This document shows, one piece after another, positions 1-18,063 of a stretch of 34,807 nucleotides of DNA (its first letter is position 1; each line of letters begins with the position of its first letter). Source of the DNA: a virus (Duplodnaviria > Heunggongvirae > Uroviricota > Caudoviricetes); the IMG/VR virus record IMGVR_UViG_2526164649_000022. The stretch is one strand, 5' to 3'. The notes under the pieces are model-generated. The model was not told the DNA's origin and did not search any database. It saw nothing but the letters and a program-made list of their open reading frames with translations. The translations under genes were made by a program, and so were the position numbers.

Positions 1-738
1 TCACTTCGGGTAAGGCTGAATCCTGAATAGCTTAGTATTTAGTCGCTTTCTTGCGCGCTTGTTCAGGAACCTGATGTAACGATATTGATTAAATTTGTGT
101 ACCACGGCCCGCTCCTTATTCGCTCGTAAATATTCGCCGCGCTTCCCTCCACGATTAATCGCATTCATCGTTATCTCGTGATACCACTCACCGTCCAGTT
201 CGTAGAATATGCTTTCATGGCTGCCAATAAAATCAAAATTTGACGCCTGATACACAACACCTGCACACCCGCAACGTTCGTCTGCAAAGGACTGAACCCA
301 CTCCACTGACGGATACAGTAACCTGATGGTTTTCAGCGCGTAGCTGATGGCCCGTGATTCAGAGTTGCGGGGCATGTCGTCGTGTAGCCACATGCGGTTC
401 AGTTCCATATAGCCCCGGTTATCCGTTTCAAGCACAACGCGACGCCCTGAGTTGGGGTTAAGGGCATATCCCCACTGAAGAACACCAACCAGATCACGTC
501 CACTGAATACGCCCAGATGCAACCAGGAGTTATTCACAAAACGGCGGGAATAATGCTTTGTCTGAATGATTGTGCGGGCCAGCCAGCAGGATATGGTTTC
601 AACGCGCAGCTCCCTTGAACCATAGCCGACAATCCGGCCTTCATACTCAATAACGCAGGGTTTTGTCAGAATGCGTGATTTCTTCTCTTTTCCCACAATA
701 CAGCTCCGTGGGATGCTCCCGGGCACTCGATATGACAA
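1..738 (-). CDS. mom: Mom-like DNA modification (anti-restriction) protein; stop codon at window positions 1-3; start uncertain because the reading frame overlaps com
   Basis: 245-aa ORF immediately downstream of, and overlapping, a recognisable com zinc-finger gene, as in the Mu com-mom operon at the phage right end. Confidence 0.7.
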
Positions 739-832
739 TGTAACGTTTACAGCGAGGACATTTGATTTCTATATGCTTAAAACCTCCTTTAAACAGCAAT
801 TTATTGCAATTTTTACAACGAACAGAGTCCAT
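647..832 (-). CDS. com: Com zinc-finger translational activator of mom
   Basis: Internal Met of the 81-aa track ORF gives a 61-aa product [13 protein letters not shown]...CPRCKR with a CxxC...CxxC zinc finger closely matching recalled Mu Com; overlaps mom. Confidence 0.8.
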
Positions 833-892
833 AATTTCCCCCAGTGTAATAACAGGATATAGCTGCCCGGAGGGCTGGGGGTATTTAATCAC

Positions 893-957
893 ACTTGATG
901 CAAACCGACGATCGATATGATGCTATCGATCGTCATAAACTATACAAACTGATTATT
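893..957 (-). promoter_or_regulatory. Putative com-mom promoter/operator region with a Dam-site inverted repeat
   Basis: Perfect 10-bp inverted repeat ACGATCGATA/TATCGATCGT (908-917 and 924-933) carrying two GATC sites, about 75-100 bp upstream of the com ATG; Mu Pmom is known to be Dam/OxyR regulated. Confidence 0.4.
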
Positions 958-1059
958 TAATCGCCTGGTAGACTGGCCCCCTGAATCTCCAGACAACCAG
1001 TATCACTTATTTAAGTGATAGTCTTAATACTAGTTTTTAGACTAGTCATTGGAGAACAG

Positions 1060-1425
1060 ATGATTGATGTCTTAGGGCCGGAGAAACGCAGACGGCGTAC
1101 CACACAGGAAAAGATCGCAATTGTTCAGCAGAGCTTTGAACCGGGGATGACGGTCTCCCTCGTTGCCCGGCAACATGGTGTAGCAGCCAGCCAGTTATTT
1201 CTCTGGCGTAAGCAATACCAGGAAGGAAGTCTTACTGCTGTGGCCGCCGGAGAACAGGTTGTTCCTGCCTCTGAACTTGCTGCCGCCATGAAGCAGATTA
1301 AAGAACTCCAGCGCCTGCTCGGCAAGAAAACGATGGAAAATGAACTCCTCAAAGAAGCCGTTGAATATGGACGGGCAAAAAAGTGGATAGCGCACGCGCC
1401 CTTATTGCCCGGGGATGGGGAGTAA
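1060..1425 (+). CDS. insC: IS2 transposase OrfA (InsC)
   Basis: [40 protein letters not shown] matches recalled InsC; the track ORF start at 1015 is an upstream extension. Confidence 0.9.
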
Positions 1426-2288
1426 GCTTAGTCAGCCGTTGTCTCCGGGTGTCGCGTGCGCAGTTGCACGTCATTCTCAGACGAACCGATGACTGGATGG
1501 ATGGCCGCCGCAGTCGTCACACTGATGATACGGATGTGCTTCTCCGTATACACCATGTTATCGGAGAGCTGCCCACGTATGGTTATCGTCGGGTATGGGC
1601 GCTGCTTCGCAGACAGGCAGAACTTGATGGTATGCCTGCGATCAATGCCAAACGTGTTTACCGGATCATGCGCCAGAATGCGCTGTTGCTTGAGCGAAAA
1701 CCTGCTGTACCGCCATCGAAACGGGCACATACAGGCAGAGTAGCCGTGAAAGAAAGCAATCAGCGATGGTGCTCTGACGGGTTCGAGTTCTGCTGTGATA
1801 ACGGAGAGAGACTGCGTGTCACGTTCGCGCTGGACTGCTGTGATCGTGAGGCACTGCACTGGGCGGTGACTACCGGCGGCTTCAACAGTGAAACAGTACA
1901 GGACGTCATGCTGGGAGCGGTGGAACGCCGCTTCGGCAACGATCTTCCGTCGTCTCCAGTGGAGTGGCTGACGGATAATGGTTCATGCTACCGGGCTAAT
2001 GAAACACGCCAGTTCGCCCGGATGTTGGGACTTGAACCGAAGAACACGGCGGTGCGGAGTCCGGAGAGTAACGGAATAGCAGAGAGCTTCGTGAAAACGA
2101 TAAAGCGTGACTACATCAGTATCATGCCCAAACCAGACGGGTTAACGGCAGCAAAGAACCTTGCAGAGGCGTTCGAGCATTATAACGAATGGCATCCGCA
2201 TAGTGCGCTGGGTTATCGCTCGCCACGGGAATATCTGCGGCAGCGGGCTTGTAATGGGTTAAGTGATAACAGATGTCTGGAAATATAG
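1383..2288 (+). CDS. insD: IS2 transposase OrfB (InsD), DDE integrase domain
   Basis: 301-aa ORF overlapping insC in the arrangement typical of IS3-family OrfA/OrfB. Confidence 0.9.
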
Positions 2289-2919
2289 GGGCAAATCCAC
2301 CTGGTCTGAACGCTCTCACCTCGTCCAGTGTGGGCAACAGAGAAAGTTGTTCTTTCATCTCCCGCTGACAGCGATAAATCTCATCGTTGCGCTCAACAAT
2401 GGCCTGTATCATCGCTGTGGCCAGTTCCTCAAGTTCCTGCGTCGTCAGCTGCACCTGCTGATTATCCGCATCACTCCACGTCATATTTGTTTGTGCCGCG
2501 ACAGATTTTGCCAGCATGACTACCGGGGACAGGCGGCCCAGTGAGTCGGGGCCAGCATTCCAGATACGACCGTTCCATTCAAACGTGAACGGCTTCGCCT
2601 CCTGTTCTGTGCGCCATGCTTCAATTTCCTGACGTCTGGCCTCTCTGGCCGCTTCCAGCATTTCTGGTGTCACAGTGAATGGGGCTATCTCACCCCATTT
2701 GCCACTTTGCAGTTCCTGCCAGATTCGCTGACCCGTCGGTGCGACATCATCAGCGGTGGCTGTGTAGGGGACTGCCTGGTCCCTGTCGTCAAAAAAAACG
2801 TCACAGTCTACTGCGCCACTTTCGGTATAACGGGGATTAATGATTTTTTTAATTTCCACGGTGCATTCCTCACGATGTGCGAATAAAAAGCCCGGGCATT
2901 GCGCCAGAGACATGAGCAT
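2122..2919 (-). CDS. Phage tail-module protein (putative second tail-fibre assembly/chaperone-like); phage-derived part is 2300-2919; C-terminus replaced by read-through into IS2
   Basis: Position directly downstream of a tail-fibre gene; removing IS2 and one duplication copy restores ...RAFRPGD followed by TAA. A GTG start at 2859 with a GAGGA Shine-Dalgarno is plausible instead of the ATG at 2919. Confidence 0.5.
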
Positions 2920-3223
2920 CCGGCACCCCGGACAGGGCGCAATATGACCCCGGTAATGAATGCTCTGAACATCCCGTAATGAAAAATTGTGGGGATGCTA
3001 TATACGTTCCGGTGGGAGTACTGGGCACTGAAATCCCCACCGGTCCCAGTCGTGAGCCTCTGTATGACTGCCCCCTGACAAGTCTGATGACTTTATCACC
3101 GTCAGCTTCTCCCTGGTACGCAGCAATAATCAGCCCGCCAATGTCAGGGTCTCCCCATCTGTTGCGGACAGAGCTCGCCACGATTCTGTAAATAATATCT
3201 TCTGTGGTTATATTTATTTTCAC
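2870..3223 (-). CDS. Hypothetical small protein between tail fibre and assembly-like gene
   Basis: 117-aa ORF whose GTG start overlaps the stop of the upstream fibre gene (GTGA); no recognisable domain. Confidence 0.3.
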   Translation of the reverse strand: MKINITTEDIIYRIVASSVRNRWGDPDIGGLIIAAYQGEADGDKVIRLVRGQSYRGSRLGPVGISVPSTPTGTYIASPQFFITGCSEHSLPGSYCALSGVPDAHVSGAMPGLFIRTS

Positions 3224-4272
3224 CCAGTCAGTCTGGATATGGGCCAGTAGCAGTAGCGGGTGTGATAAATGGGGCCGTTAATGCCGTAAAAAGTAAGGGA
3301 TTTGGCTCTGTACCGCGGTTCTGTTGTCTCAGGGCGTGCATCAGTCCACCGGATGCTGAGCCCCCCTTCAAACCGTGTGTCGGGTATGATGATGCCGTAG
3401 GGGCCAGCAACGGAATATTCAACTGGCAGCGCATTCCTTACCCAGGCCAGGAAATCACTCTTAGTGTCAAAACGGATAACATCTTCAGGCAGAAAAGCAC
3501 ACCCAAAGCCGAATGCGCCGGGTATCGCCAGACGGCCTTTTGTCCGGTCGTAAATGTCGCTCTGTGCTTCCATCGTGGCCGCACTTTTCAGCCCCAGATT
3601 ATCCCGGGACTTCTGTTGTGCCTTTTCGCCTGCTGCTGCGATTTCAGACAGATGGTTAGCCGTTTTCAGAGTGCCGGTCAGCGCAGCATCAATGTCATTT
3701 TTGGCCTGCTCTGCTGCGCGGGCATAACCTGCGGCTGCCTGTGCACGCTGACCGGATAAGACGGCGTTTTTCCCTGTGCTTTTCACGTCTTCCGCTGTGG
3801 CCTTTCTGTTCTCAGCTGTGACGCTTGCATCCTGTCGGGCTTTCTCCGCAAAACGTTGTGCATCATCACGGGCCGTTGCGGCTGCCGTCACATCCTGCGC
3901 CGTCTGCCGTGCGTTTCCGGCTGCGCTCCCGGCACTCTGCTGCGCCTGTTGCGCCAGCTCTTCGAATTTCTTCAGGGATTCCGGACGCAGGTCAATATCA
4001 GTTGCGCCCAGAAAATCATTCAGCGAACCGTCCGTTGAATCTTCATAAACGCGGATGACACCGATTTCTGAAAGGCGCTGTGTGCTTTGTGTCAGGCGAA
4101 CGCTGTACACACCCGGCAGAACGGGGAAGTCATATTCCCCGTTCTGTGTGGTGACATGGCTGAAAACACTTTTCAGAATCCCTGCACGGTTGTGCATGGA
4201 GGTTAGTGTAATGGTTGCGCCGCCCAGCGGTTCTCCCGTGGGCGTTTTAATCACACCTTTAAGCTGCGGCAT
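3220..4272 (-). CDS. Tail fibre protein with lambda side-tail-fibre-like N-terminal domain
   Basis: N-terminus MPQLKGVIKTPTGEPLGGATITL...VYEDSTDGSLNDFL resembles the lambda Stf N-terminal domain, followed by an Ala/Gln-rich coiled region and a distinct C-terminal domain. Confidence 0.7.
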   Translation of the reverse strand: MPQLKGVIKTPTGEPLGGATITLTSMHNRAGILKSVFSHVTTQNGEYDFPVLPGVYSVRLTQSTQRLSEIGVIRVYEDSTDGSLNDFLGATDIDLRPESLKKFEELAQQAQQSAGSAAGNARQTAQDVTAAATARDDAQRFAEKARQDASVTAENRKATAEDVKSTGKNAVLSGQRAQAAAGYARAAEQAKNDIDAALTGTLKTANHLSEIAAAGEKAQQKSRDNLGLKSAATMEAQSDIYDRTKGRLAIPGAFGFGCAFLPEDVIRFDTKSDFLAWVRNALPVEYSVAGPYGIIIPDTRFEGGLSIRWTDARPETTEPRYRAKSLTFYGINGPIYHTRYCYWPISRLTG

Positions 4273-4804
4273 CGGGACGCTCCGGCCAGTTGATGGCGTT
4301 ATATGTGGCTTTATCTGTGATGGTGCTGAAATCCATCGCCTGCAGTGATTTCGCGTAAATACGGTACGCTTTCAGCTTTTCTTTATCTTCGTCGCTGATT
4401 AACCCCAGCAGCAGGTCTTCTTCCCATTCCCCTGTCCGGGCACTGACCTGAGCCAGAAGGGCATCACGCTCATCTTCCGCTTTGAGTCTGTAGTCAAAGA
4501 CAAATTCATCATTGCGGTAAAACCAGTAACCCGGCGCGGTAATGCGGCGGTTGGCGGTAATATCAGGAACTTCAATAACACTGGCGTTACGGGGTTCAAT
4601 GCCTGTCACATCCTTACCGACCCACACCACGCGCCCGTCTCCGGTGTAAACCATTTTTATGGTGTCACTGGCAAAGTTCTTCTGTTCTTCATACCAGTTT
4701 TTGCCGTCTTCCGAAAAAAGCCAGGTGACATCATACTGTTTTGTCAGCTGATATTGTTCCGCGGTTTTCGGATTACCTGCCGTAATATTTTTTAAATGCA
4801 ACAT
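4259..4804 (-). CDS. Tail fibre assembly protein (Tfa / Mu U-like)
   Basis: MLHLKNITAGNPKTAEQYQLTKQYDVTWLFSEDGKNWYEE is the conserved N-terminus of lambda Tfa / P2 G / Mu U chaperones. Confidence 0.8.
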   Translation of the reverse strand: MLHLKNITAGNPKTAEQYQLTKQYDVTWLFSEDGKNWYEEQKNFASDTIKMVYTGDGRVVWVGKDVTGIEPRNASVIEVPDITANRRITAPGYWFYRNDEFVFDYRLKAEDERDALLAQVSARTGEWEEDLLLGLISDEDKEKLKAYRIYAKSLQAMDFSTITDKATYNAINWPERPDAAA

Positions 4805-4806
4805 TG

Positions 4807-5907
4807 TTAAATACTCGCTACGTTATACCAGGTGCCATTAATCAGTTTTTGCAGCGGTCGGTAATACACACCGTTGACGTTATCCGCTGAGTTACGGCCG
4901 GTATCCGATATCGATATCCCTGACAACCCGTGTCCCGAAGGTGCGCGAAATGTCCATGAAACAGTGTTACTGCCGGGGCCGTAATACATTTCATAACCAT
5001 ACCGCACATCCTGCACGCCACCATTTCGCTGCTGGTAACGGGCATCAAAGTTTCCGTAGTCTGACGGTGTTACCCGTCCTGTAACGTTTACAGCTTTATT
5101 ACTCTGGATACTGCCACTCTGAAAACGCAACACATGCACGCTATTGGCATAAACATCCAGCAGGCCATCACCATTCTGTTTAAATCCGGTGTCATTATCA
5201 CCAAGAACAATTGAATTCCCCCCCAGGGCGTTCTGAACGCCGATACCCAGCGCACCATTGACCTGCGAACCACCGCCAACAGACACTTTATGCGACATGG
5301 ATATTTCACCCGTCCGCAAATTAATGGTGAACGGGCGCAGGGGACCAATATCGCCATTTTCCCCCTGACCTTCACTGGTGGGAATAAGGTGAAGGCACTC
5401 TTCCGAACGACGAAAAATCAGGCCAAAAGCTTCGTTGAAAATCCTCAGCGCATTAACACCACGGATTTTCAGCTCCCCTGTCATCGTGCCGCCTGATTGT
5501 TTTATGACTTTCAGTGCATCTGCAAAATCTGTTGCACTCTCTTTGCCGAGAATACCGCGCACAAAAGCACTGAGCGGCGTTAATGCCATTGTGTCTTTGC
5601 CGGTAAAATAAGGGAATGTATTATTCTGACCGGTTAATCCGGCAATAGCACCGGCTGAACCACTGTTCGTAATAAACAGCTTTTTCAGCGCCGTCATAAT
5701 CTGGTCGGTTGTGTTTTTATCCGGTTTGATATTTGCCTGCCGGAGTATTTCCAGTAATTCAGACTGAATAATATTAAACCAGTCCGGCCCCGGATACGTG
5801 GGCGGAATACCGTTCCCGCCTTCGGTGAAATAAAGCGTTGTTTTGCTTAATTCAGCTGCGACAGGTGGCATTACCGGCACACCCGTCGGGTTATCCACAT
5901 AAAACAT
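4807..5907 (-). CDS. Tail fibre protein (Mu S position)
   Basis: 366-aa Gly/Ser-rich ORF between baseplate genes and tfa; gene-order inference. Confidence 0.6.
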   Translation of the reverse strand: MFYVDNPTGVPVMPPVAAELSKTTLYFTEGGNGIPPTYPGPDWFNIIQSELLEILRQANIKPDKNTTDQIMTALKKLFITNSGSAGAIAGLTGQNNTFPYFTGKDTMALTPLSAFVRGILGKESATDFADALKVIKQSGGTMTGELKIRGVNALRIFNEAFGLIFRRSEECLHLIPTSEGQGENGDIGPLRPFTINLRTGEISMSHKVSVGGGSQVNGALGIGVQNALGGNSIVLGDNDTGFKQNGDGLLDVYANSVHVLRFQSGSIQSNKAVNVTGRVTPSDYGNFDARYQQRNGGVQDVRYGYEMYYGPGSNTVSWTFRAPSGHGLSGISISDTGRNSADNVNGVYYRPLQKLINGTWYNVASI

Positions 5908-5910
5908 AAA

Positions 5911-6495
5911 TTATTCTCCGGTGTAATAATATTCATATTCCGTGCCCGCCAGCCGGTAATGCTTCAGCAGGCATTCCAGCTCACGGGGGCGTTCGCTGAT
6001 TAATGGTGTCATGACGCCATCAATACAGGTAAACCGCCCGGCATCTTTACCCGGGACGTTCACTTTCAGCATCCAGCGATACCGCGCCGGATGCAGCGGA
6101 TACATGCAGTCGCGCAGACAGTGGTGCGGCAGAACGGCTGTCACCTTAATGGTGAAGCCCAGCGCCGCTGCTGCGGCTTCAGTCTGCCAGGTTGCCAGCC
6201 CGCCCCTGCGACGGTATTTCTCCACCACGGCACGGCGGCGGGCTTCCCTGGTGGTGGGGGCAATTCCGCATTCCGGCAGCGCCAGATACTGCTCCCACTC
6301 CGGCAGCAGCCGGAGCGTGGTTTCCGGGCGCATCTCCACATGCAGACGCGAGGCGTCGTATTCAGTGCGGTTTAAACGTTCTGCAAGCGCCCTTAAAAAG
6401 CGGTTTAAATCCGCGTCGTTATCACGCGGCCATGCCTTACCCCGTGGCATGACCTGTTGCAGTGCGGCCAGCCATTCCGTCACGCTGTGAGCCAT
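5911..6495 (-). CDS. Baseplate/tail protein (Mu gp48-like)
   Basis: 194-aa ORF at the gp48 position between the baseplate J-like gene and the fibre gene. Confidence 0.55.
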   Translation of the reverse strand: MAHSVTEWLAALQQVMPRGKAWPRDNDADLNRFLRALAERLNRTEYDASRLHVEMRPETTLRLLPEWEQYLALPECGIAPTTREARRRAVVEKYRRRGGLATWQTEAAAAALGFTIKVTAVLPHHCLRDCMYPLHPARYRWMLKVNVPGKDAGRFTCIDGVMTPLISERPRELECLLKHYRLAGTEYEYYYTGE

Positions 6496-7556
6496 GTCAC
6501 CTCCCCGATGGTGATAAGCTCATCCACATCACTGGTGGTGTCCTCCCCGATGTTAAGGAAGTAATCCGTGATGCCGGACGTCATACCGATGGCCGTGCGC
6601 AGCGAGGACACCGGCAGCGTCTGACCGGGTGCCAGTGTCTTCTGTAACGCGGTCAGGTTTGCCCGGACGGCGCTCCTGTTCGCCAAGCTGTCCGGTGTCA
6701 GACGGATGGATATGCTGACTTTCTTCAGCCTGACCTGTACCGGCCAGACCTCAATGCCGCCCGGTTTACCCACCATGACGCCCGTGGCCGGGTGTTTGTG
6801 GCAGAACAGATACTGCTCCATTGTCTTCAGGTCTTCGCGGGTTGGCACGATGTTTTCCCGGTCATCATAAAGCCATGCCAGCCCGACCGTGCCGGGGCCG
6901 TGCCATGCATCCCACGCCCACGCGCGGCTGACGCCCGGCACTTCACGCGCCCATATCACGTAGTCATGCAACGCGCCGCCTGTCGGTGGATTGCGGCGCA
7001 CATACAGCAGACGGTCCAGCAGCGCTGCGATGGATTCAGTGTCTGCGCCACCGGTGATGCCACCTTCAGCCACCGCGCCTGTGCTGGCCGTTCCGGGCAG
7101 CGGGGACAGCAGGGTGAGTACGGCACCGGCAGCAAGATTGCCCGCCACACCGGCTTCTTCAGCCTGCACGATGACGGTGACCTCGCCGTCCTGCACCTCG
7201 CCGGACGTGAGTACCTGATACACCTGGTTCGTGTCGGACTGCATCCGGGTTTCTGCCGGAAGGGGGGACTGACTGGTGAAGGTCACCCGCCCGCTGGCAA
7301 AGGTGGCCTGCTTGCGGATAACCCCTTCATACTTTGCTGTTTTGATAATGGTTTCATCATCAGACGTGGTGGACGGGATTATCTGGTCCTTAATCCAGCT
7401 CTGATGGTCGTATAAATCCCGGACCTGACTGCTGAATGACACGTTCAGCGCCTGCTCAACACTGACAGGCGGCAGCTTTTGCAGGCCGAGTTCATACGCA
7501 ATATCTTTTTCGCCGTCGGCAATCAGTTTGCCCAGCGTGGGGATTTCATACGGCAT
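6480..7556 (-). CDS. Baseplate J-like protein (Mu gp47-like)
   Basis: 358-aa ORF, size and order match baseplate J family in Mu-like tails. Confidence 0.65.
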   Translation of the reverse strand: MPYEIPTLGKLIADGEKDIAYELGLQKLPPVSVEQALNVSFSSQVRDLYDHQSWIKDQIIPSTTSDDETIIKTAKYEGVIRKQATFASGRVTFTSQSPLPAETRMQSDTNQVYQVLTSGEVQDGEVTVIVQAEEAGVAGNLAAGAVLTLLSPLPGTASTGAVAEGGITGGADTESIAALLDRLLYVRRNPPTGGALHDYVIWAREVPGVSRAWAWDAWHGPGTVGLAWLYDDRENIVPTREDLKTMEQYLFCHKHPATGVMVGKPGGIEVWPVQVRLKKVSISIRLTPDSLANRSAVRANLTALQKTLAPGQTLPVSSLRTAIGMTSGITDYFLNIGEDTTSDVDELITIGEVTWLTA

Positions 7557-9591: not shown

Positions 9592-10865
9592 CAGTCGGTG
9601 ATCTCCACAGGTTGCGTCGGCAGGATGAATGACGGATGACGCAGGCGGTTACGCTGCACGATTTCATCCCGTCGGCGTGTGTCACCATGCTCGCGCCATG
9701 CCAGCAATGCGGCAGAGGTGGTTGTGGTCAGCGTCACCTGCCGGGTTTCCGGCAGACGGGCGGCACGCTCGCGGGCATCCGTAATCACGGCCTGCCGTAA
9801 ATCGCGCAGCGTTCGCCACAATGTCCGCTGGTTGTTTTCCACCGCCGCCACCGCCTGCTCATGCAGTTCAGCCGCCAGCGTGTCACCGGCAGATAACGCC
9901 GCATCACGGGTATCGAACGTCATCGAGGCCACGGCACTGGCCTGTCCCAGCAGGGCTCCCAGCACAACCACCTGGCGGAAGTCGTCAATGTTCTTTTGCA
10001 GGCTGTCAGATACCGGCTGATAATCCGGTGACAGCCCGATGGCAAAGCCGGGGTTGCCGTCTGCCACGCTGCCGGGCTTCACGGTGATATCTTCCGGCAG
10101 TGCGCCGGTGGCAATCTGCCTGGCACGTTCTCCGGCCCACTGGTTGCGTAATGTCGTGTAAACCGCCAGTGCTTCGGGTGGTTCCGTCACAAGGCCCGCA
10201 ATATCTTCCACCCGTGCTGACAGCTCACTGACCAGACGCCCCGGTGTGGCAATGAGGGTTCCGGCCATCGCCTTAAAATGCTTCAGCCTGTCCATCCACT
10301 GATTCAGTGCTGCCGGTAACGTGGGCAGGTTAGCCACAAGGTTTTCCATATCGGCCAGAAAACTGTCGGCCATGTCACCCAGCCCGTCGAGTGCGCCGAA
10401 CCAGTCGCCATCGTCAATGGCGGCTTTCACCGCATCAATGCCTGTCAGCACTTCCTGCTGCGTGTTATCCGCCGCAGACGGGAACAGGCGCTCGCCTGCC
10501 TCAAACACTTCAAAGGTGACATACGCAATGCCGTCTTCCTCCGTGCAGAGGCGATGGGTGACCTTGCCAACCTGTACGGTCTGTATCCCGAACCACGGGT
10601 GGACAAGCTCGCCGGGGCCGGGGGTATTGAGCGCATCTAAAAGGGCGTTTAAATCATCCCGGAAGTTTTTACCTGGCAGCTTTGCGTTAATCTGCTGTTG
10701 CCCCGGAACGGCCCCGTTATCATCCGTCCAGGCGGTTTCACGCCGGGGATAAGCACGGGGAATGGCACGACGACCACCGGTGCCCTCCGTATCCACCAGA
10801 AAGAAGGGGACGCCACGAAACGAGGCGTCGCGCAGCCCGTCCCATTTACCGTTGCTCGTTGTCAT
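9591..10865 (-). CDS. DNA circulation protein N-like (Mu gp43-like)
   Basis: 424-aa ORF immediately downstream of the tape measure gene with overlapping start/stop. Confidence 0.6.
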   Translation of the reverse strand: MTTSNGKWDGLRDASFRGVPFFLVDTEGTGGRRAIPRAYPRRETAWTDDNGAVPGQQQINAKLPGKNFRDDLNALLDALNTPGPGELVHPWFGIQTVQVGKVTHRLCTEEDGIAYVTFEVFEAGERLFPSAADNTQQEVLTGIDAVKAAIDDGDWFGALDGLGDMADSFLADMENLVANLPTLPAALNQWMDRLKHFKAMAGTLIATPGRLVSELSARVEDIAGLVTEPPEALAVYTTLRNQWAGERARQIATGALPEDITVKPGSVADGNPGFAIGLSPDYQPVSDSLQKNIDDFRQVVVLGALLGQASAVASMTFDTRDAALSAGDTLAAELHEQAVAAVENNQRTLWRTLRDLRQAVITDARERAARLPETRQVTLTTTTSAALLAWREHGDTRRRDEIVQRNRLRHPSFILPTQPVEITD

Positions 10866-12685
10866 TAACCCTGCTCCACGCTGGTGACGCCAGCCTGCGC
10901 ACTGAGTCTGACGCCGGGTTGATCCACTCTGACGCTTTTCACGCGGGCATCACCTTCCACCACCACACGGATTTCCCCCTGCAATTGTTGCGGAAGGAAA
11001 GGATAATTCTGTGTGGGTTGCATACCTGCCCACGGTCGCGGGTCGGCAATGTTCTTGTCACCCAGCGAATTAAACCAGTCCGTTACCTTACGCCAGACGG
11101 ACTCGAGCGCTTTCTGGTTATCCTGGCTTTGTTGAGCGAACTCGCGCTCCCACGGGCTGGCGCTGGCATCACCGGCAACGAATTTTGTAAGGCTGTCAAC
11201 CTCACCTGGTAGGGCATATTGCGTGGTCAGAAAATCGTAAAACTCCAGAGCACCGGCAATGATGCCAGCGCCTTTACCTGCCTTTCCTCCACAGTTACCC
11301 GAACCTCGTGGATTGCGTGGGTTACGGGGATTGCGCGATGAATCCGGCGCATCCGGCAGACCGCCGGTATTACCCTTCAGCCCGCCACTGCCCATATTGA
11401 CCACATAAACCGGCATCACGCCGGAACCAAAAACATCCGTAATGCTGCCGGGTATCCCTTTGCCTTTCCCTTTGGGATTCATGATGTCGTGGATGGTTTT
11501 ACCGAACCTGTACGTCTTTCTGATGGCGATAATGCCGCCCAGCGCCGCCATATATTTACCGACCTGCAACCAGTTCTGGACAGTGTTCTGGTCCACGCTG
11601 TTAATGGCATCCGCCAGATCCTGAACGGGCTTTGCCAGTTGCCCTTCAGCGAAACGTTGCCATTCGTTATTCAGCGACTGCATCGCGGCATTAAAGCCTT
11701 CGGCATTGGTCTGTGCGGCCTTTTGCGTGGAACCCTGTTCAGCCATGCCGTAAATCATTTTCTCCAGCAATTGCCGGTTCTCCGGGCTGAGTAACGCCTT
11801 AATCCCCTGCATCCCGGTCTGATCAAACACATCCTGAAGTTTCAGCGGGTCGTATTTAGCCCGTTTGAGGATTTCCATCATCAGTTCATAGGGCTTTTTA
11901 ATGTCTTTTGTGCCTTTGACAAAAACGTCAACCCCGTTTTTTTTCAGGAACTCAATGTTCTTTTTGTCCGACAGGGAGGCATACATGGCCTGAATACTGG
12001 TCACTGTCTCATCAATGCTGCCTTTGTTTTTGGCAAACACCTGAGCAAATGCCCCCATCTGCGCAATGGCTTCCGGTCCCTGATCCTGAATGATGGAAAA
12101 CAGTTTCGGGGCCGCGCGGGCAACATCAGCAACGCTGACAGAACCCACCGCGAACTGTGCATACAACCTGTCCATTGTGTTGCTGACCGCATCAGCGCCC
12201 CGGACACCTTTTTCCCAGAACTGCGCCATCATCCCGGCTGCCACCTGTCCGTCAACACCAAACGCCTGCATAAACAGCCCCATGTTGCGCAGGTTGTCCA
12301 CCACATACTGATAATCACCGGTTTTTCCCAGCAGGGCATCAACCCCTTCACCGAGGGCTGAGGCATCAATACGGATATCCTTCTGACTGGAAACGTCCCG
12401 GATCGCGTTCTTCAGCGTGTTGACCTGCTCTGCGTTTAATTTGGCATTGGTTCCCATACGCCGCATCTGAGCATCAAAATCAGCCACGCCTTTTACCGTC
12501 ATGCTGCCACCAAGCTCGGCAATCATCGCCGTGTAGCGGTTGCCAAGCGCATCCAGACTGCGCCCAGCGGCGTCGGTTGTGGCTTTGACCAGGCGCATGG
12601 CTTTCTGGTTATTCCGGGCGAACTGCGACATATTCGCGCCATACTGCCGGGCTTTGGCGGTCAGGTTCCCGGCAAGGTTGATCAT
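10865..12685 (-). CDS. Tail tape measure protein, apparently intact, start MINLAGNLTAK at 12685
   Basis: About 606 aa, Ala/Gly/Gln-rich with Gly-rich C-terminal segment; the track ORF (to 12847) is extended by read-through from the IS600 end. Confidence 0.75.
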   Translation of the reverse strand: MINLAGNLTAKARQYGANMSQFARNNQKAMRLVKATTDAAGRSLDALGNRYTAMIAELGGSMTVKGVADFDAQMRRMGTNAKLNAEQVNTLKNAIRDVSSQKDIRIDASALGEGVDALLGKTGDYQYVVDNLRNMGLFMQAFGVDGQVAAGMMAQFWEKGVRGADAVSNTMDRLYAQFAVGSVSVADVARAAPKLFSIIQDQGPEAIAQMGAFAQVFAKNKGSIDETVTSIQAMYASLSDKKNIEFLKKNGVDVFVKGTKDIKKPYELMMEILKRAKYDPLKLQDVFDQTGMQGIKALLSPENRQLLEKMIYGMAEQGSTQKAAQTNAEGFNAAMQSLNNEWQRFAEGQLAKPVQDLADAINSVDQNTVQNWLQVGKYMAALGGIIAIRKTYRFGKTIHDIMNPKGKGKGIPGSITDVFGSGVMPVYVVNMGSGGLKGNTGGLPDAPDSSRNPRNPRNPRGSGNCGGKAGKGAGIIAGALEFYDFLTTQYALPGEVDSLTKFVAGDASASPWEREFAQQSQDNQKALESVWRKVTDWFNSLGDKNIADPRPWAGMQPTQNYPFLPQQLQGEIRVVVEGDARVKSVRVDQPGVRLSAQAGVTSVEQG

Positions 12686-12752
12686 GATTTCCGTGCTGAG
12701 ACGGCTACCTGAGGTGTACTGGCAATAGCGGACACTACCATTTGTTCTTTTT

Positions 12753-13571
12753 TTAAGCAGCCATCTGATGATATTTTTCCCTGAAGGCTGCCGGGGAGAT
12801 ATTCCCCAGACGAGAGTGACGACGCTGACGATTGTAGAAAATCTCAATGTATTCCCGTATTACTGAGATGGCTTCATCCCGGTTATTAAAACGATAGTGG
12901 CTCAGGCTCTCATTTTTCAGCGTTCCCCAGAAGCTTTCCATCGGAGCGTTGTCGTAACAGTTACCTTTACGCGACATTGATGTTTTCAGACCAGACTGCT
13001 CCTGTATGACCCGGTAATCGTATGCGCAGTACTGTGAACCTCGATCAGAGTGGTGGATTAGCCCGGCAGGTGGGCGCTGGCTCCTGAGCGCCATAAACAG
13101 GGCTTTACCTGTCAGCTCTTTTGTCATGCGCTCTCCCATGGCGTAGCCGACAATTTCACACGTATAAACATCTTTGATGCCAGCGAGGTACAACCATCCC
13201 TCCTGTGTGGCAACATACGTCAGGTCCGCCACCCAGACCTGATTTGGTGCTGTAGGAGCGAACGTCTGGTTCAGCAGATTTGGCGCAACTGGCAGATTGT
13301 GGTTCGGGTTCGTAGTCGCTCTGAACTTGCGTTTCTGCTTACAGCGTAGCCTTAGCTCCTTACGAAGACGTGCCAGTCGGTCACGACCAACGATGATGCC
13401 ATTCTCTGCCAGCTCCGTCTGGAGCCGCCGGGTTCCATATGTTTCGCGAGTGCGGATATGTGCCACCTTAATCTCCAGTTTTAGCCGCTCATCACTTTGT
13501 TTTCTGTCTGAGGGTTCATGCTGTACCCAGTTGTAATAACCGCTCCTGGATACACCAAATACCTGACACAT
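12753..13571 (-). CDS. IS600 transposase OrfB (DDE integrase domain)
   Basis: 272-aa ORF with IS3-family integrase features, downstream of OrfA. Confidence 0.9.
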   Translation of the reverse strand: MCQVFGVSRSGYYNWVQHEPSDRKQSDERLKLEIKVAHIRTRETYGTRRLQTELAENGIIVGRDRLARLRKELRLRCKQKRKFRATTNPNHNLPVAPNLLNQTFAPTAPNQVWVADLTYVATQEGWLYLAGIKDVYTCEIVGYAMGERMTKELTGKALFMALRSQRPPAGLIHHSDRGSQYCAYDYRVIQEQSGLKTSMSRKGNCYDNAPMESFWGTLKNESLSHYRFNNRDEAISVIREYIEIFYNRQRRHSRLGNISPAAFREKYHQMAA

Positions 13572-13606
13572 CGCTTCAATGGGAAATTGTTGTCGCCATT
13601 GTTCGA

Positions 13607-13909
13607 TTAACGCGTATTTTTCAGCGACTCCTGTGCAAAATACGCTGTTGCTTTTTTTAATATATCTCGCTCAAGGCGAGCTTCATTTAACGCCTTACGC
13701 AGTTGCAGAATTTCAGATTCCAGTTCAGCCACCGTGCGGGAACCAGGAGTACCGAGCCCTTTTCTGGCGGCGGTAACCCATTGTCCTAAAGTGCCTTCAG
13801 GAAGGGATAATCGGGAAGCGCCTTCACTGATCGAAAGTTGATTTTCAAGAACCGTTCTGACAGCTTCGGCTTTGAACTCTTTAGAGTAACGTTGGGTTTT
13901 TCTGCTCAT
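13607..13909 (-). CDS. IS600 transposase OrfA (HTH/leucine zipper)
   Basis: 100-aa ORF MSRKTQRYSKEFKAEAVRTVLENQLSISEGA..., typical IS3-family OrfA. Confidence 0.9.
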   Translation of the reverse strand: MSRKTQRYSKEFKAEAVRTVLENQLSISEGASRLSLPEGTLGQWVTAARKGLGTPGSRTVAELESEILQLRKALNEARLERDILKKATAYFAQESLKNTR

Positions 13910-13965
13910 TATTAGCTCCTTCTGATGCCATTCTATTTCAGGAAGGAGTGTCCGTTAAACTCAGG

Positions 13966-14181
13966 CTACCTCAACCTGTTGCCATACTGTTTCTCCAGTT
14001 GCTTTATCAGGCGGAACAACTGCCGCAGGGGCAGTTGTTCCAGGTACTGAATGCTGAATCGCGAAGACAGGTTAACCAGCAGGTTCATCAGTGCCGCCGC
14101 CAGCGGCATCAGTTCGCCCCCGCGTTGCCACCTCCTCAAGCATGTCATCCAGCACAGCCGCTTTCGTGCTGATAAGCTCAA
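13966..14181 (-). CDS. Frameshift extension frame of the tail assembly chaperone (G-T-like); last two codons and stop lie in the IS600 terminus
   Basis: ORF overlapping the 3' end of the chaperone gene in another frame, with a G5 run (C5 on plus strand, 14117-14121) at the overlap. Confidence 0.45.
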   Translation of the reverse strand: MSLSARKRLCWMTCLRRWQRGGELMPLAAALMNLLVNLSSRFSIQYLEQLPLRQLFRLIKQLEKQYGNRLR

Positions 14182-14467
14182 GGTCTGCCGGGTGGAGCAT
14201 TCGCAGCTGTTTCATGTCCAGCGGGCCGGGGATATTACCGATTGACGCAACCTGACGGCGCATCATCTCCAGTCCCATCAGCACCTCAGAACAGTAGGCC
14301 ACCGCCTTTCCGTTCCCGCCCATGACGACGCGTTCTGCGGCCAGTTGCGCATCAATCACATCACTGGCGGTCAGTTCGCGCAGTTTCACGGTTTTATGCA
14401 GGGTTTCATCTGCCGTGCCTTTGCCGGTCAGAAGCCCGTGTTTCAGTTCAAATTCCATTGCGGCCAT
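14072..14467 (-). CDS. Tail assembly chaperone (Mu gp41-like)
   Basis: 131-aa ORF between tail tube and tape measure, the conserved chaperone position. Confidence 0.6.
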   Translation of the reverse strand: MAAMEFELKHGLLTGKGTADETLHKTVKLRELTASDVIDAQLAAERVVMGGNGKAVAYCSEVLMGLEMMRRQVASIGNIPGPLDMKQLRMLHPADLELISTKAAVLDDMLEEVATRGRTDAAGGGTDEPAG

Positions 14468-14834: not shown

Positions 14835-16310
14835 TTAAAGCTTGAACTGAATCAGGCCTGCCAGCACACGCAACTGGTTCACCAGATTCGGGTGGCAGAT
14901 AAAGTTCAGGCGGTTTTTATCGCTGCTGTCGCGTGTCACCTGAAGCGTGTCCCTGTAATCGCTGAAGTTTTCCACAAGGCCCGCCGGGAGAAGTTCGGTC
15001 TGGCAGATATCCAGCAGCTCTGCAGTGCACAGCTTCGGCGTCATCACCGGCTGCCCCGCATCCAGCGAGTCCAGCACGTCATCATCCGCCAGCTTGTGGC
15101 GCGGATAACGGTTCGAGAAACGGTTTTTAATGATGTAACGGATACGGCCCAGCGTGGCGGGTGACTGCACATCAAGATACGACACATCCGCATCACCGTA
15201 CTGGTTAACCCAGTACATGGTGATTTCACGCTCGATGCAGACGTTATCCCCGGCGTCCACCATGTGCGTGGCAATGCCGTCATGCAGCAGCAGGTTACGT
15301 TCCGGCATATCCCAGCGAACATTACGCGCAGGCGGCAGAATGCCGGTCAGGACCAGCGTCTGAAGCGGACGCGCCGGGTCAATGGCAAGGTGATACGCTG
15401 CCGTTGCGCCGTATGACGCGGCCCACATCCACGCCGGATGCGGCGACAGGTTGGTGCCGATGCAGCTAATCAGCCAGTCATTGCGGGTTTCACCAAACGT
15501 GCCGGTTTCCCCGTGCGTGCCACGAAACGCCGTCCACAGCTGCGCTTCCATCATTTTGAGCGGCCCCCAGCGGTTCAGCAGTTCATCACGCAGGGTGTTC
15601 AGGCTTTTCGTGTCGGTGAACGGGGCGATGATATCGGTAAACCACTCCGGGCCGATGGCCGCAACGGCGTCTGCCATTTCCGGTGTCCCGGTGCCGCCGG
15701 TAAACGCGGTTGCGGTCACCTTCACACCTGCCGGGAAGGCTTCACCGGTGTGGTAGTTCAGGCGAACGTCGGCACCGTTGCCGGTGACGCCGTGCCAGTT
15801 CACGGTCAGCTCCACGGTATCCGTGGCATCATCCTTCACCGCAGCGGCCACCTGCGTGGCAGGCTTTTTCGTCACCGCATCAGCAATGGCTTTTGCAATG
15901 TTTTCCTTCGTATCCCCGGCGCTCACGCTCACCTGAACGGACACACCGTTAATCAGCAGTGCCACCGTTCCGGCTTCGGTCGCTGTACCCAGCACGGTCA
16001 GCGTGGCTTTTGCGGCAGCGCCTTCAGGAGCGGCAACCGGCATCGCCCAAGTTTCCGTGTACGTGTTGGCACGACGCAGCATTTTGAGCATTTCAGCCAG
16101 CATCGACCCTTTGCCATAAAGCTGGTCTGCCTGGCTGTCACTGGTGATACGGGTCAGTGACAGGGCGTCTGCGCTGCCGGACGATACCGCATGGCCCATG
16201 ACCAGAATTTTTCGGCTTTGCGCGGATGCACCCTCCAGTGCCTGTGAATTGTCGATATCGATCCAGACAAGCGGGACGCGGATATCATCAGGAATGGAAC
16301 CCAGCGACAT
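14835..16310 (-). CDS. Tail sheath protein (Mu L-like)
   Basis: 491-aa ORF, size and position of contractile tail sheath. Confidence 0.8.
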   Translation of the reverse strand: MSLGSIPDDIRVPLVWIDIDNSQALEGASAQSRKILVMGHAVSSGSADALSLTRITSDSQADQLYGKGSMLAEMLKMLRRANTYTETWAMPVAAPEGAAAKATLTVLGTATEAGTVALLINGVSVQVSVSAGDTKENIAKAIADAVTKKPATQVAAAVKDDATDTVELTVNWHGVTGNGADVRLNYHTGEAFPAGVKVTATAFTGGTGTPEMADAVAAIGPEWFTDIIAPFTDTKSLNTLRDELLNRWGPLKMMEAQLWTAFRGTHGETGTFGETRNDWLISCIGTNLSPHPAWMWAASYGATAAYHLAIDPARPLQTLVLTGILPPARNVRWDMPERNLLLHDGIATHMVDAGDNVCIEREITMYWVNQYGDADVSYLDVQSPATLGRIRYIIKNRFSNRYPRHKLADDDVLDSLDAGQPVMTPKLCTAELLDICQTELLPAGLVENFSDYRDTLQVTRDSSDKNRLNFICHPNLVNQLRVLAGLIQFKL

Positions 16311-16510
16311 TATTTTTTCCCTCTGGTTTTGTTGTTATTTTTCGGAAGTGTGGTTATTTCCACATCTCCCTCGGCTTCACGGCGCAGCCAGTAAGCGCAG
16401 ACGTTGAGACGTTCCCCTTCCGGGGATAAATGTGCGCCATCCGGTTTACGGACACGGACGTTTTCCCGCGCTGGCTTAATCAGTTTCTGTTCCATCGTCA
16501 CCCCGTACAT
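16310..16510 (-). CDS. Small phage protein (Mu gp38-like)
   Basis: 66-aa ORF coupled to the sheath gene start. Confidence 0.45.
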   Translation of the reverse strand: MYGVTMEQKLIKPARENVRVRKPDGAHLSPEGERLNVCAYWLRREAEGDVEITTLPKNNNKTRGKK

Positions 16511-17087
16511 GGATCACGTCGTTAATTTCAGTGTGTTCGCCGCTGCGCAGTGTCGCCCCGAGGCGCAGGAAATCCGGGAGCGCGGCGAGATCAATCTCTT
16601 CATCCAGCCGGAATTCCTGCTCCCACGTCACCGCCCACATGGTGACACCCAGCCCGTCGAGGCTGACGGAGTAAATGTTGTCTGCCCGCACATCAGCAGC
16701 CATGCGTTCAGCCCCCATGCCCGCTGTGGCATCCGACGACAGCAGGCGTTTGATCACCTTTCCGGCCAGCACTTCACAGCGCACGTCGCGGGAATACCCC
16801 CACGAATCCGTCGCCATGATGTAAGCCACCCAGGTGACCAGACCGGACAGCCCGCCGCGCGGGTTGATATCCCGGACACGCAGGGCCGCGACACGGATAC
16901 AGCCGGTGCGACCGGACAGATAGCGTTTCACTTCATCCGGGCTGTTGAACTGGCCGATGTGACGCTCCACCACGTCAGCCCGGTCAGGGGTGTCCCCCTG
17001 AAGGGCCGTCTGCAGCCAGGCCACAATGTGCTCTGCGGCCGCAACGGTGCTCCCCGGTGTGCGCAGTTCAGGGCGTTGTTCTGTCAT
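16476..17087 (-). CDS. Virion/tail-completion protein (Mu gp37-like)
   Basis: 203-aa ORF in the head-tail joining block; gene-order inference. Confidence 0.5.
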   Translation of the reverse strand: MTEQRPELRTPGSTVAAAEHIVAWLQTALQGDTPDRADVVERHIGQFNSPDEVKRYLSGRTGCIRVAALRVRDINPRGGLSGLVTWVAYIMATDSWGYSRDVRCEVLAGKVIKRLLSSDATAGMGAERMAADVRADNIYSVSLDGLGVTMWAVTWEQEFRLDEEIDLAALPDFLRLGATLRSGEHTEINDVIHVRGDDGTETD

Positions 17088-17629
17088 GGCAGAACCTCCT
17101 TCCAGAAATGACTGATAACCTGTTGCAGCTCCTGCTGGCTGGCAGAAGACAGCCCCAGAAATTCACGTTGCGGAATGTTCATCATGCGGTGATGTGCGCC
17201 GACGGTCTGCCAGACCGGATATTTCAGCGCCCGCCCGAAACACTGCGAGATAAGCCGTTTGTGGGCGCTGACCGGCACGCTGCCGGAAAAGCCGTCATTC
17301 ATGATGCGGGCATAATCCAGCGGTGAACCGATACGCACCACGCGGTTTTCCACGATGTACTGGATACTCTCCAGCAGATGGCCTTCACCGCGCAGCAGAC
17401 TCTGGTTGCCGTGGCGGGTCTTTTTGTACCCGTCAGACCAGTCCGGCCAGCGTTCGCCACCCGGACTGGTTTTCTCATCGATGATGCGGCGGCGGGTCTG
17501 TGATTCCACCACCGCACCGATGCTTTCCAGCAGCTCTGACTGCAATGAACCCTCTGCCAGCTTTTCAACGGCGCGGCGGATATCCTCCAGACGCTGGTCA
17601 CCGCTGACCTGTACAGAAATCCCCATCAC
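17084..17629 (-). CDS. Virion morphogenesis protein (Mu gp36-like)
   Basis: 181-aa ORF with overlapping start/stop in the head-tail joining block. Confidence 0.5.
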   Translation of the reverse strand: MMGISVQVSGDQRLEDIRRAVEKLAEGSLQSELLESIGAVVESQTRRRIIDEKTSPGGERWPDWSDGYKKTRHGNQSLLRGEGHLLESIQYIVENRVVRIGSPLDYARIMNDGFSGSVPVSAHKRLISQCFGRALKYPVWQTVGAHHRMMNIPQREFLGLSSASQQELQQVISHFWKEVLP

Positions 17630-18063
17630 AGCACCCCTTTCAGGTTGTTACGGGTGAACAGCCGGGCATTGGCACCCACCACAATAATTTTCCCGTTGTC
17701 GGTTTCTGCCGGGGTGGCATACGTCGGCAGGCCCAGGTCACGGGTGCCGTTCGCCATTTCACGCAGGGTTTTAATGGCGTCGTCGTAGCGTTTCTGGATC
17801 AGCTCCGTGATTTGATTGTCACGCTCTGATAACCAGTAAAACGCCAGCGATACCGCCACGCGTTGCAGCGGGCGCGGGATTTCCGTCACCCCCAGCGGCA
17901 GCTGGTAGCGGCGGGACAGAAACGAATCAATTTCCGCTTCCGCATCACTGATGGCCTGACGGATTTTGTCTTCATCCAGCCCGTTGGTTTCCCGGTTAAT
18001 CGCCATGTTCCAGACAAGATTGCCGTCCGCGCGTAACAGATCTTCCTGCGTGATGTATCCCAT
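17626..18063 (-). CDS. Head-tail joining protein (Mu gp35/36-like)
   Basis: 145-aa ORF with overlapping stop/start codons on both sides. Confidence 0.5.
   Translation of the reverse strand: MGYITQEDLLRADGNLVWNMAINRETNGLDEDKIRQAISDAEAEIDSFLSRRYQLPLGVTEIPRPLQRVAVSLAFYWLSERDNQITELIQKRYDDAIKTLREMANGTRDLGLPTYATPAETDNGKIIVVGANARLFTRNNLKGVL

Follow-up and report, generated by a model that had tools for sequence, protein, structure and literature searches.

A fixed four-gene tail-fibre cassette probably takes the place of the invertible G segment in a Mu-like prophage lineage and is decaying in one copy

Phage Mu is the textbook case of host-range switching by DNA inversion. The 34,807-nucleotide stretch of DNA analysed here (the window; IMG/VR virus record IMGVR_UViG_2526164649_000022, Caudoviricetes) carries a Mu-like prophage, i.e., a transposable, contractile-tailed phage with its sheath gene at 14835-16310. 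The genome that holds it is probably of the Shigella flexneri type. Its tail-fibre region poses the question of what stands where Mu keeps its invertible G segment and the invertase gene gin. Analysis of the interval between the baseplate gene gp48 (5911-6495) and com/mom (647-892 and 1-738) revealed two fibre genes (fibre 1 and fibre 2), each followed by a chaperone gene. In the list of open reading frames (ORFs), every phage gene of this interval lies on the minus strand. An initial annotation, made from the letters of the window, had interpreted the interval as a static, co-oriented two-fibre region that replaces the G segment, and this reading holds. We consider it likely that in this clade a fixed four-gene cassette replaces the invertible G segment together with gin, and that the fibre 2 module has been inactivated in the copy studied here.

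At the same locus, Mu (L014) and Mu-type prophages such as that of strain E24377A (L016) carry a recombinase gene together with S, U and the inverted U' and S'. The window differed from them in every component of the inversion system that was searched for, as the initial annotation had supposed in reporting neither a gin-like invertase nor an inverted S'/U' pair. A tblastn search with Gin over the whole window gave a best E value of 0.49, and the same query recovered Mu gin at 99.5% identity. The family scan detected no Resolvase domain among the ORFs that it covered. No gixL-like site was found at up to three mismatches, and no substantial inverted repeats were present in 600-6600 except for the ends of an insertion sequence (IS), IS2. 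There is no inverted S'/U' pair; the fibre and chaperone genes all lie on the minus strand. The S-U-U'-S'-gin arrangement of Mu, D108 and SfMu occupies the same slot from gp48 to com-mom, and both arrangements provide two specificities. The cassette differs in lacking gin, gix and the inverted pair, and in its second specificity, which belongs to an unrelated fibre type with another anchor and another chaperone family and is encoded in the same orientation as the first. The features of the interval are as follows.

1-738, minus strand: mom, at the right end of the Mu-like prophage (PF25680 Mom, E 2.7e-74).
647-892, minus strand: com ORF (PF10122, E 4.2e-7).
964-968, no strand: CCTGG, left copy of the IS2 target-site duplication.
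969-2299, plus strand: IS2 (IS3 family), with transposase ORFs 1015-1425 and 1383-2288 and HTH_Tnp_1 and rve domains.
2300-2304, no strand: CCTGG, right copy of the IS2 target-site duplication.
2305-2859, minus strand: DUF4376 gene, putative tail-fibre chaperone of fibre 2 (PF14301, E 5.7e-17), with a likely GTG start at 2859.
2870-3223, minus strand: C-terminal 117 codons of fibre 2, out of frame and identical to residues 352-468 of the intact allele in a near-identical prophage (L001).
3224-3227, minus strand: frameshift site of fibre 2, a single CTGG (CTGGCTGG in intact alleles; 4-bp deletion).
3220-4272, minus strand: truncated fibre 2, 350 aa (PF08400, E 2e-29; matches to Protein Data Bank entries 7KJK and 9E7M).
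4259-4804, minus strand: Tfa, chaperone of fibre 1 of the Mu U / lambda Tfa type (PF02413 Caudo_TAP, E 7.9e-27).
4807-5907, minus strand: fibre 1, a shortened mosaic homologue of Mu S (5YVQ/9KI1, E 8.8e-35).
5911-6495, minus strand: gp48-type baseplate wedge protein, putative docking partner of fibre 1 (PF10076, E 3.4e-30).

All ORFs of the initial annotation were present on the minus strand at the coordinates it gave. The end of the Tfa gene overlaps the start of fibre 2 by 14 nt, and scans for promoters and terminators inside the four-gene cassette yielded background levels only.

The pair 4807-5907 and 4259-4804 had been taken for a Mu-type fibre with its Tfa, and the matches to 5YVQ/9KI1 and Caudo_TAP confirmed this. 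Residues 1-82 of fibre 1 match residues 1-82 of Mu S, and residues 130-365 match S 258-503. Fibre 1 is thus homologous to S at both ends, as its chaperone is to U, and it lacks an equivalent of S residues ~83-257, the span that holds the G-segment boundary (S codon ~170). The Pfam-type family scan gave only a weak gp37-trimer match for 4807-5907. In Mu, the N-terminus of S docks on a loop of gp48, with one site per wedge and six sites occupied (PMC11915804). The window likewise encodes an S-type docking N-terminus, a gp48 homologue and a Caudo_TAP gene directly downstream of the fibre gene. Fibre 1 would dock on gp48 via its conserved N-terminus and would be served by the Caudo_TAP chaperone encoded next to it.

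The region had also been called a mosaic, and fibre 1 itself is a mosaic of three parts. Residues 1-134 follow the Mu-like backbone, with 90% identity to L003, a prophage of a second Mu-like lineage. Residues ~140-301 are phiP27-like (87% DNA identity to L54 of phage phiP27). Residues ~275-366, together with Tfa, show 87 to 96% DNA identity to Actinobacillus phage pPE4 and to a Shigella/enteroinvasive Escherichia coli (EIEC) prophage, L002, whose head, neck and baseplate genes are unrelated to those of the window. The whole block from residues ~275-366 of fibre 1 through Tfa and fibre 2 to the DUF4376 gene is 94 to 96% identical to this non-Mu prophage.

For fibre 2, the initial annotation had listed a 350-aa fibre gene followed by an unknown 117-aa ORF. 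Among complete genomes, E. coli FDAARGOS_943 and VL40 are the closest relatives (98.3% identity over 2300-6000). Their annotation has one 468-aa "prophage tail fiber N-terminal domain-containing protein", and the two ORFs of the window together correspond to this single gene of 467/468 aa. Alignment to the intact allele revealed that one CTGG of the CTGGCTGG repeat is missing in the window, the surviving copy being located at 3224-3227. The 4-bp deletion, which may have arisen by slippage, generates a TGA stop at 3222-3220 and truncates fibre 2 at residue 350. The interval 2870-3223 had no match in the family scan, and alignment to intact alleles showed that the 117-aa ORF is no gene of its own and represents the C-terminus of fibre 2 put out of frame. 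Its 117 codons show no substitutions relative to the intact L001 allele, which indicates that the frameshift is recent. Independent Shigella assemblies carry the 350-aa allele, likewise followed by IS2, and the allele also appears as a 23-member protein cluster (P0035), so it does not represent a sequencing error. That the allele recurs in several assemblies, and that the TGA stop and the GTG of the downstream ORF overlap, could be taken to mean that the split is functional, yielding two polypeptides or being recoded at the GTGA stop/start overlap. We regard this as highly improbable, since in every other lineage the protein is continuous (467-490 aa), the lesion consists simply in a missing unit of the tandem CTGG repeat, the GTG is not preceded by a Shine-Dalgarno sequence, and the unsubstituted downstream part points to a very recent event and not to a maintained arrangement.

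The gene downstream of fibre 2 had been described as an assembly-like gene at 2300-2919. Its assignment to fibre assembly stood, given its membership in the DUF4376 chaperone family; both of its boundaries had to be revised. The PF14301 match was obtained with ORF 2122-2919. DUF4376 homologues are almost uniformly 187-192 aa long, and a GAGGA motif at 2871-2867 precedes a GTG at 2859; for both reasons this GTG, and not the ATG at 2919, is the likely start. At the other end, IS2 interrupts the gene two codons short of its stop, and the reading frame runs on into IS2 to 2122. Excision of IS2 in silico restored the C-terminus ...AFRPGD followed by the stop, as in L001. The long ORF 2122-2919 was rejected as the true chaperone gene on account of the length of the homologues and of its tail, which is IS2 sequence.

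IS2 itself, located between the fibre block and com, was missing from the initial annotation. The copy at 969-2299 is 99.7% identical to annotated IS2 and carries terminal inverted repeats (pair at 978-1009/2260-2291) and two overlapping transposase ORFs. The intact 5-bp CCTGG duplication indicates a simple insertion and not a deletion junction. Deletion of gin by IS2 was considered and rejected, because the target duplication is intact and because IS2-free relatives have no gin either. The element lies upstream of com, 76 bp (893-968) from the start of the com ORF and just past a GATC-containing stretch at ~905-935, which, by analogy with Mu, would be the Dam/OxyR-sensitive mom regulatory region. 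By the same analogy, the insertion might alter com-mom control. The true start of com is probably internal to the ORF, judging from the annotated Com of L001 and L003 (61 aa).

DUF4376 proteins of other phages have experimental support as fibre chaperones. In Alteromonas phage V22, a functional fibre requires gp27 (PMC7289586), and A5 gp9 and V22 gp27 have been modelled as trimeric caps similar to the intramolecular chaperones found in the T5 fibre and in the K1F tailspike (PMC10579305). In Campylobacter CJIE1, the gene that lies downstream of the H-fibre is needed for fibre function (PMC7882524). Like the protein of the window, the V22, A5 and CJIE1 chaperones belong to PF14301, are ~190 aa long and are encoded directly after a fibre gene; they differ in that their client fibre family is not that of fibre 2. 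At every locus examined, DUF4376 lies directly 3' of a fibre gene. By analogy, the enterobacterial DUF4376 protein is expected to be the chaperone of fibre 2, which would cap and trimerise the fibre tip. A diverged Tfa was rejected as an identity for DUF4376, as hhalign profile comparison with Caudo_TAP returned a probability of 0.3%. Single-sequence AlphaFold prediction of its fold was weak (predicted local distance difference test, pLDDT, 64), and Foldseek found no match for it at E <= 0.001.

Analysis of the truncated fibre 2 product predicted an immunoglobulin (Ig)-like collar or anchor domain (~aa 1-95), a coiled coil (~98-225) and the start of a C-terminal domain. The lambda Stf-like N-terminus proposed for 3220-4272 was corroborated by PF08400 and by 9E7M (E 2e-9), and XM1 gp40 (7KJK) matched over aa 3-186 (E 6.5e-10). 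An AlphaFold model of an intact homologue (P0001), generated as a monomer at moderate confidence (pLDDT 65), comprised a beta-sandwich (3-75), a long helix (98-225) and an alpha/beta C-terminal domain (260-465, pLDDT ~80). In Foldseek, the anchor superposed on StfN of Ur-lambda with a TM score of 0.84 and a root mean square deviation of 1.8 A, and the XM1 neck protein gp40 was matched as well. Profile and Foldseek searches with the C-terminal domain gave no Pfam or PDB match and no solved relative; this part resembles predicted fibres of lytic coliphages only. Structure prediction and Foldseek comparison thus supported the claim that the 350-aa protein is a fibre.

In Ur-lambda, Stf is an accessory fibre that speeds adsorption; its collar domain is homologous to that of fibre 2 (37% identity, TM 0.84), and in both fibres an alanine-rich helical shaft comes next. 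On its non-contractile tail, lambda Stf assembles into a dodecameric collar, and it has a T4 gp37-like tip and a Caudo_TAP chaperone. The window, by contrast, combines a contractile tail with an unrelated tip and with DUF4376 as the next gene. The plan of gp40 from the Vibrio myophage XM1, which has a simple baseplate, was found in the predicted structure of fibre 2: the same Ig-like N-terminal domain, a long coiled coil (~100 residues in gp40) and a C-terminal domain, which binds the receptor in gp40. XM1 gp40 differs in its length of 839 aa and its tailspike-like C-terminus, and neck attachment has been demonstrated for gp40 only. Intact fibre 2 would be a 468-aa trimer whose collar, of the lambda Stf/XM1 gp40 type, is followed by ~125 residues of coiled coil and by a receptor-binding domain at the C-terminus.

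The initial annotation had pointed to the region as a likely site of an undescribed function. This view cannot be kept, nor is the layout a unique mosaic, because the same four-gene cassette is widespread and already annotated in many genomes and in phiP27. The order fibre, Caudo_TAP, PF08400 fibre, DUF4376 recurs in E. coli and Shigella Mu-like prophages at several insertion sites, including L001, which has the same layout without IS2 and without gin, and L003-type prophages. A divergent Mu-like lineage carries an identical 470-aa fibre 2 beside com-mom at five chromosomal sites, which points to recent transposition of viable phages. The L002 prophage shares window positions 2351-5085 at 94 to 96% identity. 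The same order was found in phiP27 (L54-L57) and pPE4 (gp67-gp70), and L56 of phiP27 aligns to 99% of fibre 2 at 36% identity. Unlike the window phage, phiP27 and pPE4 are integrase phages and not transposable, phiP27 being an Stx2e phage with Mu-type baseplate genes; their fibre 2 anchor belongs to a lambdoid-like subtype B, ~42% identical to subtype A of the window. In lambdoid prophages, the cassette follows J-lom-stf-tfa. A contiguous mom-com-DUF4376 arrangement was detected in 17 of 5426 complete E. coli genomes (at least 80% coverage, near-identity search mode), and further E. coli genomes carry diverged or decayed versions. The literature searched, the coverage of which was incomplete, contained no description of a static two-fibre layout in Mu-like phages and no functional work on the phiP27 and pPE4 cassette genes.

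Two of these loci have further features. In L002 (1938-5766), the stretch downstream of the shared cassette contains the effector gene ipaH and pseudogenes of IS110 and of the invertase pinE, and IS66 interrupts a lytic-transglycosylase gene, probably in the tape-measure region. In the lambdoid prophages L012/L013 (1876-7564), two PF08400 fibres stand in tandem, one of 1023 aa with Tfa and the next of 474 aa with DUF4376, and their anchors are of different subtypes, which raises the question of mixed collars on one tail.

The recurrence in lambdoid prophages suggests another explanation, namely that fibre 2 and DUF4376 are passengers that entered from a lambdoid prophage via fibre/Tfa homology and serve siphophage tails only, with no role in the Mu-like virion. 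It would fit the identical gene pair that follows stf-tfa in lambdoid prophages, the presence of the cassette in a prophage with unrelated tail genes, and the repeated inactivation of fibre 2 in Shigella/EIEC genomes, the window included; the site used by lambda StfN would, moreover, be buried under the sheath in a myovirus. The selection pattern between the window and L003 speaks against it. The first 115 residues of fibre 2 are ~92% identical, with a synonymous divergence (dS) of 0.24 and a ratio of nonsynonymous to synonymous divergence (omega) of 0.13. This dS is indistinguishable from backbone values (gp47, 0.20; gp48, 0.19; fibre 1 N-terminus, 0.23; mom, 0.29). The remainder of fibre 2, i.e., the tip, showed dS of 1.2-1.8 and omega of 0.33-0.36, and DUF4376 showed dS of 1.24 and omega of 0.15. 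The Mu-like lineages also have an anchor subtype of their own, with 89 to 98% identity among its members and ~40% to the phiP27/lambdoid and lambda subtypes. As far as the sequences tell, the fibre 2 anchor has co-diverged with the backbone under purifying selection, and tip and chaperone have been swapped in. Continued purifying selection on an exchanged tip and chaperone is unexpected for dead cargo, and phages with intact cassettes have recently transposed to at least five sites. We therefore hold the passenger explanation to be unlikely. Two vertically inherited anchors with exchanged tips and chaperones, all under purifying selection, are the signature of two working fibres.

If both fibres of the fixed cassette work, their places on the particle have to be considered. 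Since fibre 1 would take all six gp48 sites, another attachment site is most likely for fibre 2. The collar of Ur-lambda consists of twelve StfN domains and sits at the gpV/gpM junction (PMC12617516); a tube junction of this type would be covered here by the sheath that the prophage encodes. The neck of myophage XM1 carries six gp40 trimers, which are bound via their Ig-like domain and touch the head-completion and tail-terminator proteins (PMC10457771). By analogy with XM1, the neck is our best guess for the attachment of fibre 2. Intact relatives would make both fibres together and display two receptor specificities at once, with no alternation by inversion. The more specific proposal that such simultaneous display replaces G inversion in a clade of enterobacterial Mu-like phages, that the second set is anchored at the neck by a lineage-specific StfN/gp40 collar, and that this domain is an adaptor for ring junctions is less likely than not, and we put it forward tentatively.

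A docking site that travels within the cassette would account for the portability of fibre 2 between unrelated baseplates and necks. Fibre 2 would then be a branch of the baseplate fibre, its collar binding fibre 1 or Tfa in the manner of LtfA/LtfB of the T5-like phage DT57C, and the block common to the window and L002 at 94 to 96% does extend from the fibre 1 tip through Tfa and fibre 2 to DUF4376. Co-variation of the anchor with these proposed partners is not seen: between the window and L003, it is 92% identical, compared with 34% (protein) for Tfa and 56% for the fibre 1 tip. In both solved cases, moreover, StfN-type domains bind tail or neck protein rings and not fibres. A branched fibre thus appears improbable, more so than the passenger explanation.

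Several points weigh against a fixed cassette with two working fibres and against the neck as the site of the second. The cassette is known here from its genes, and from them it is deduced that fibre 2 enters a Mu-type particle. The neck placement is drawn from XM1 by analogy, and the neck proteins of the window have no sequence similarity to any XM1 chain. A 98%-identical anchor subtype occurs in the L002/L017 prophage, whose neck and baseplate genes are unrelated; no shared neck similarity was found between the window and the L002-type prophage, so a docking partner cannot be read from this comparison. This prophage is itself degraded, and the presence of the anchor there settles neck docking neither way. 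The predicted architecture of fibre 2 derives from the moderate-confidence monomer of a homologue, and the DUF4376 model is uninformative. Several Shigella/EIEC-type genomes carry independent disruptions of fibre 2, which indicates that prophage maintenance, at least, does not depend on it.

The protein in the tail-terminator position (17084-17629) belongs to PF05069 (P2 gpS-like) and matched no solved chain, including Mu gp37; its gp36-like neighbour (17626-18063) matches Mu gpJ. For a 203-aa ORF (16476-17087), located immediately upstream of the sheath gene, no family match was obtained. By these matches, the neck of the window phage differs from that of Mu.

The state of this copy bears on the earlier statement that two specificities are encoded here. 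With fibre 2 truncated and its chaperone gene hit by IS2, this statement fails for the window, in which, to judge from the reading frames, only fibre 1 with its Tfa is encoded intact. An IS600 copy (99.5% identity) lies at ~12700-13985 inside the tail-gene block, flanked by a 660-aa ORF (10865-12847), which has no Pfam match and is probably the tape measure gene, and by a gp41-like gene (14072-14467). Two IS elements and a frameshift mark the prophage as decaying. Other copies show lesions of their own. In E. coli JNE21-009 (L015 7106-7444), fibre 2 is truncated and DUF4376 deleted, directly beside com, and in O121 201805972 and VL7S7, IS2 lies within the StfN fibre gene.

For this window, the result means that the "unknown ORF" is a pseudogene fragment and not a new function. 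For the family, it means that a fixed two-fibre design, and not inversion, is probably used by a sizeable group of Mu relatives from E. coli and Shigella. The cassette would represent a portable fibre-chaperone module that combines a backbone-conserved anchor with an exchangeable tip and chaperone, and it could help host-range engineering. It also raises the structural question of where a collar domain of the lambda Stf type docks on a contractile tail. If the tentative proposal of a neck-anchored second set is true, the collar domain, as a general adaptor for stacked-ring junctions, would let a fibre-chaperone cassette cross between non-contractile and contractile tails.

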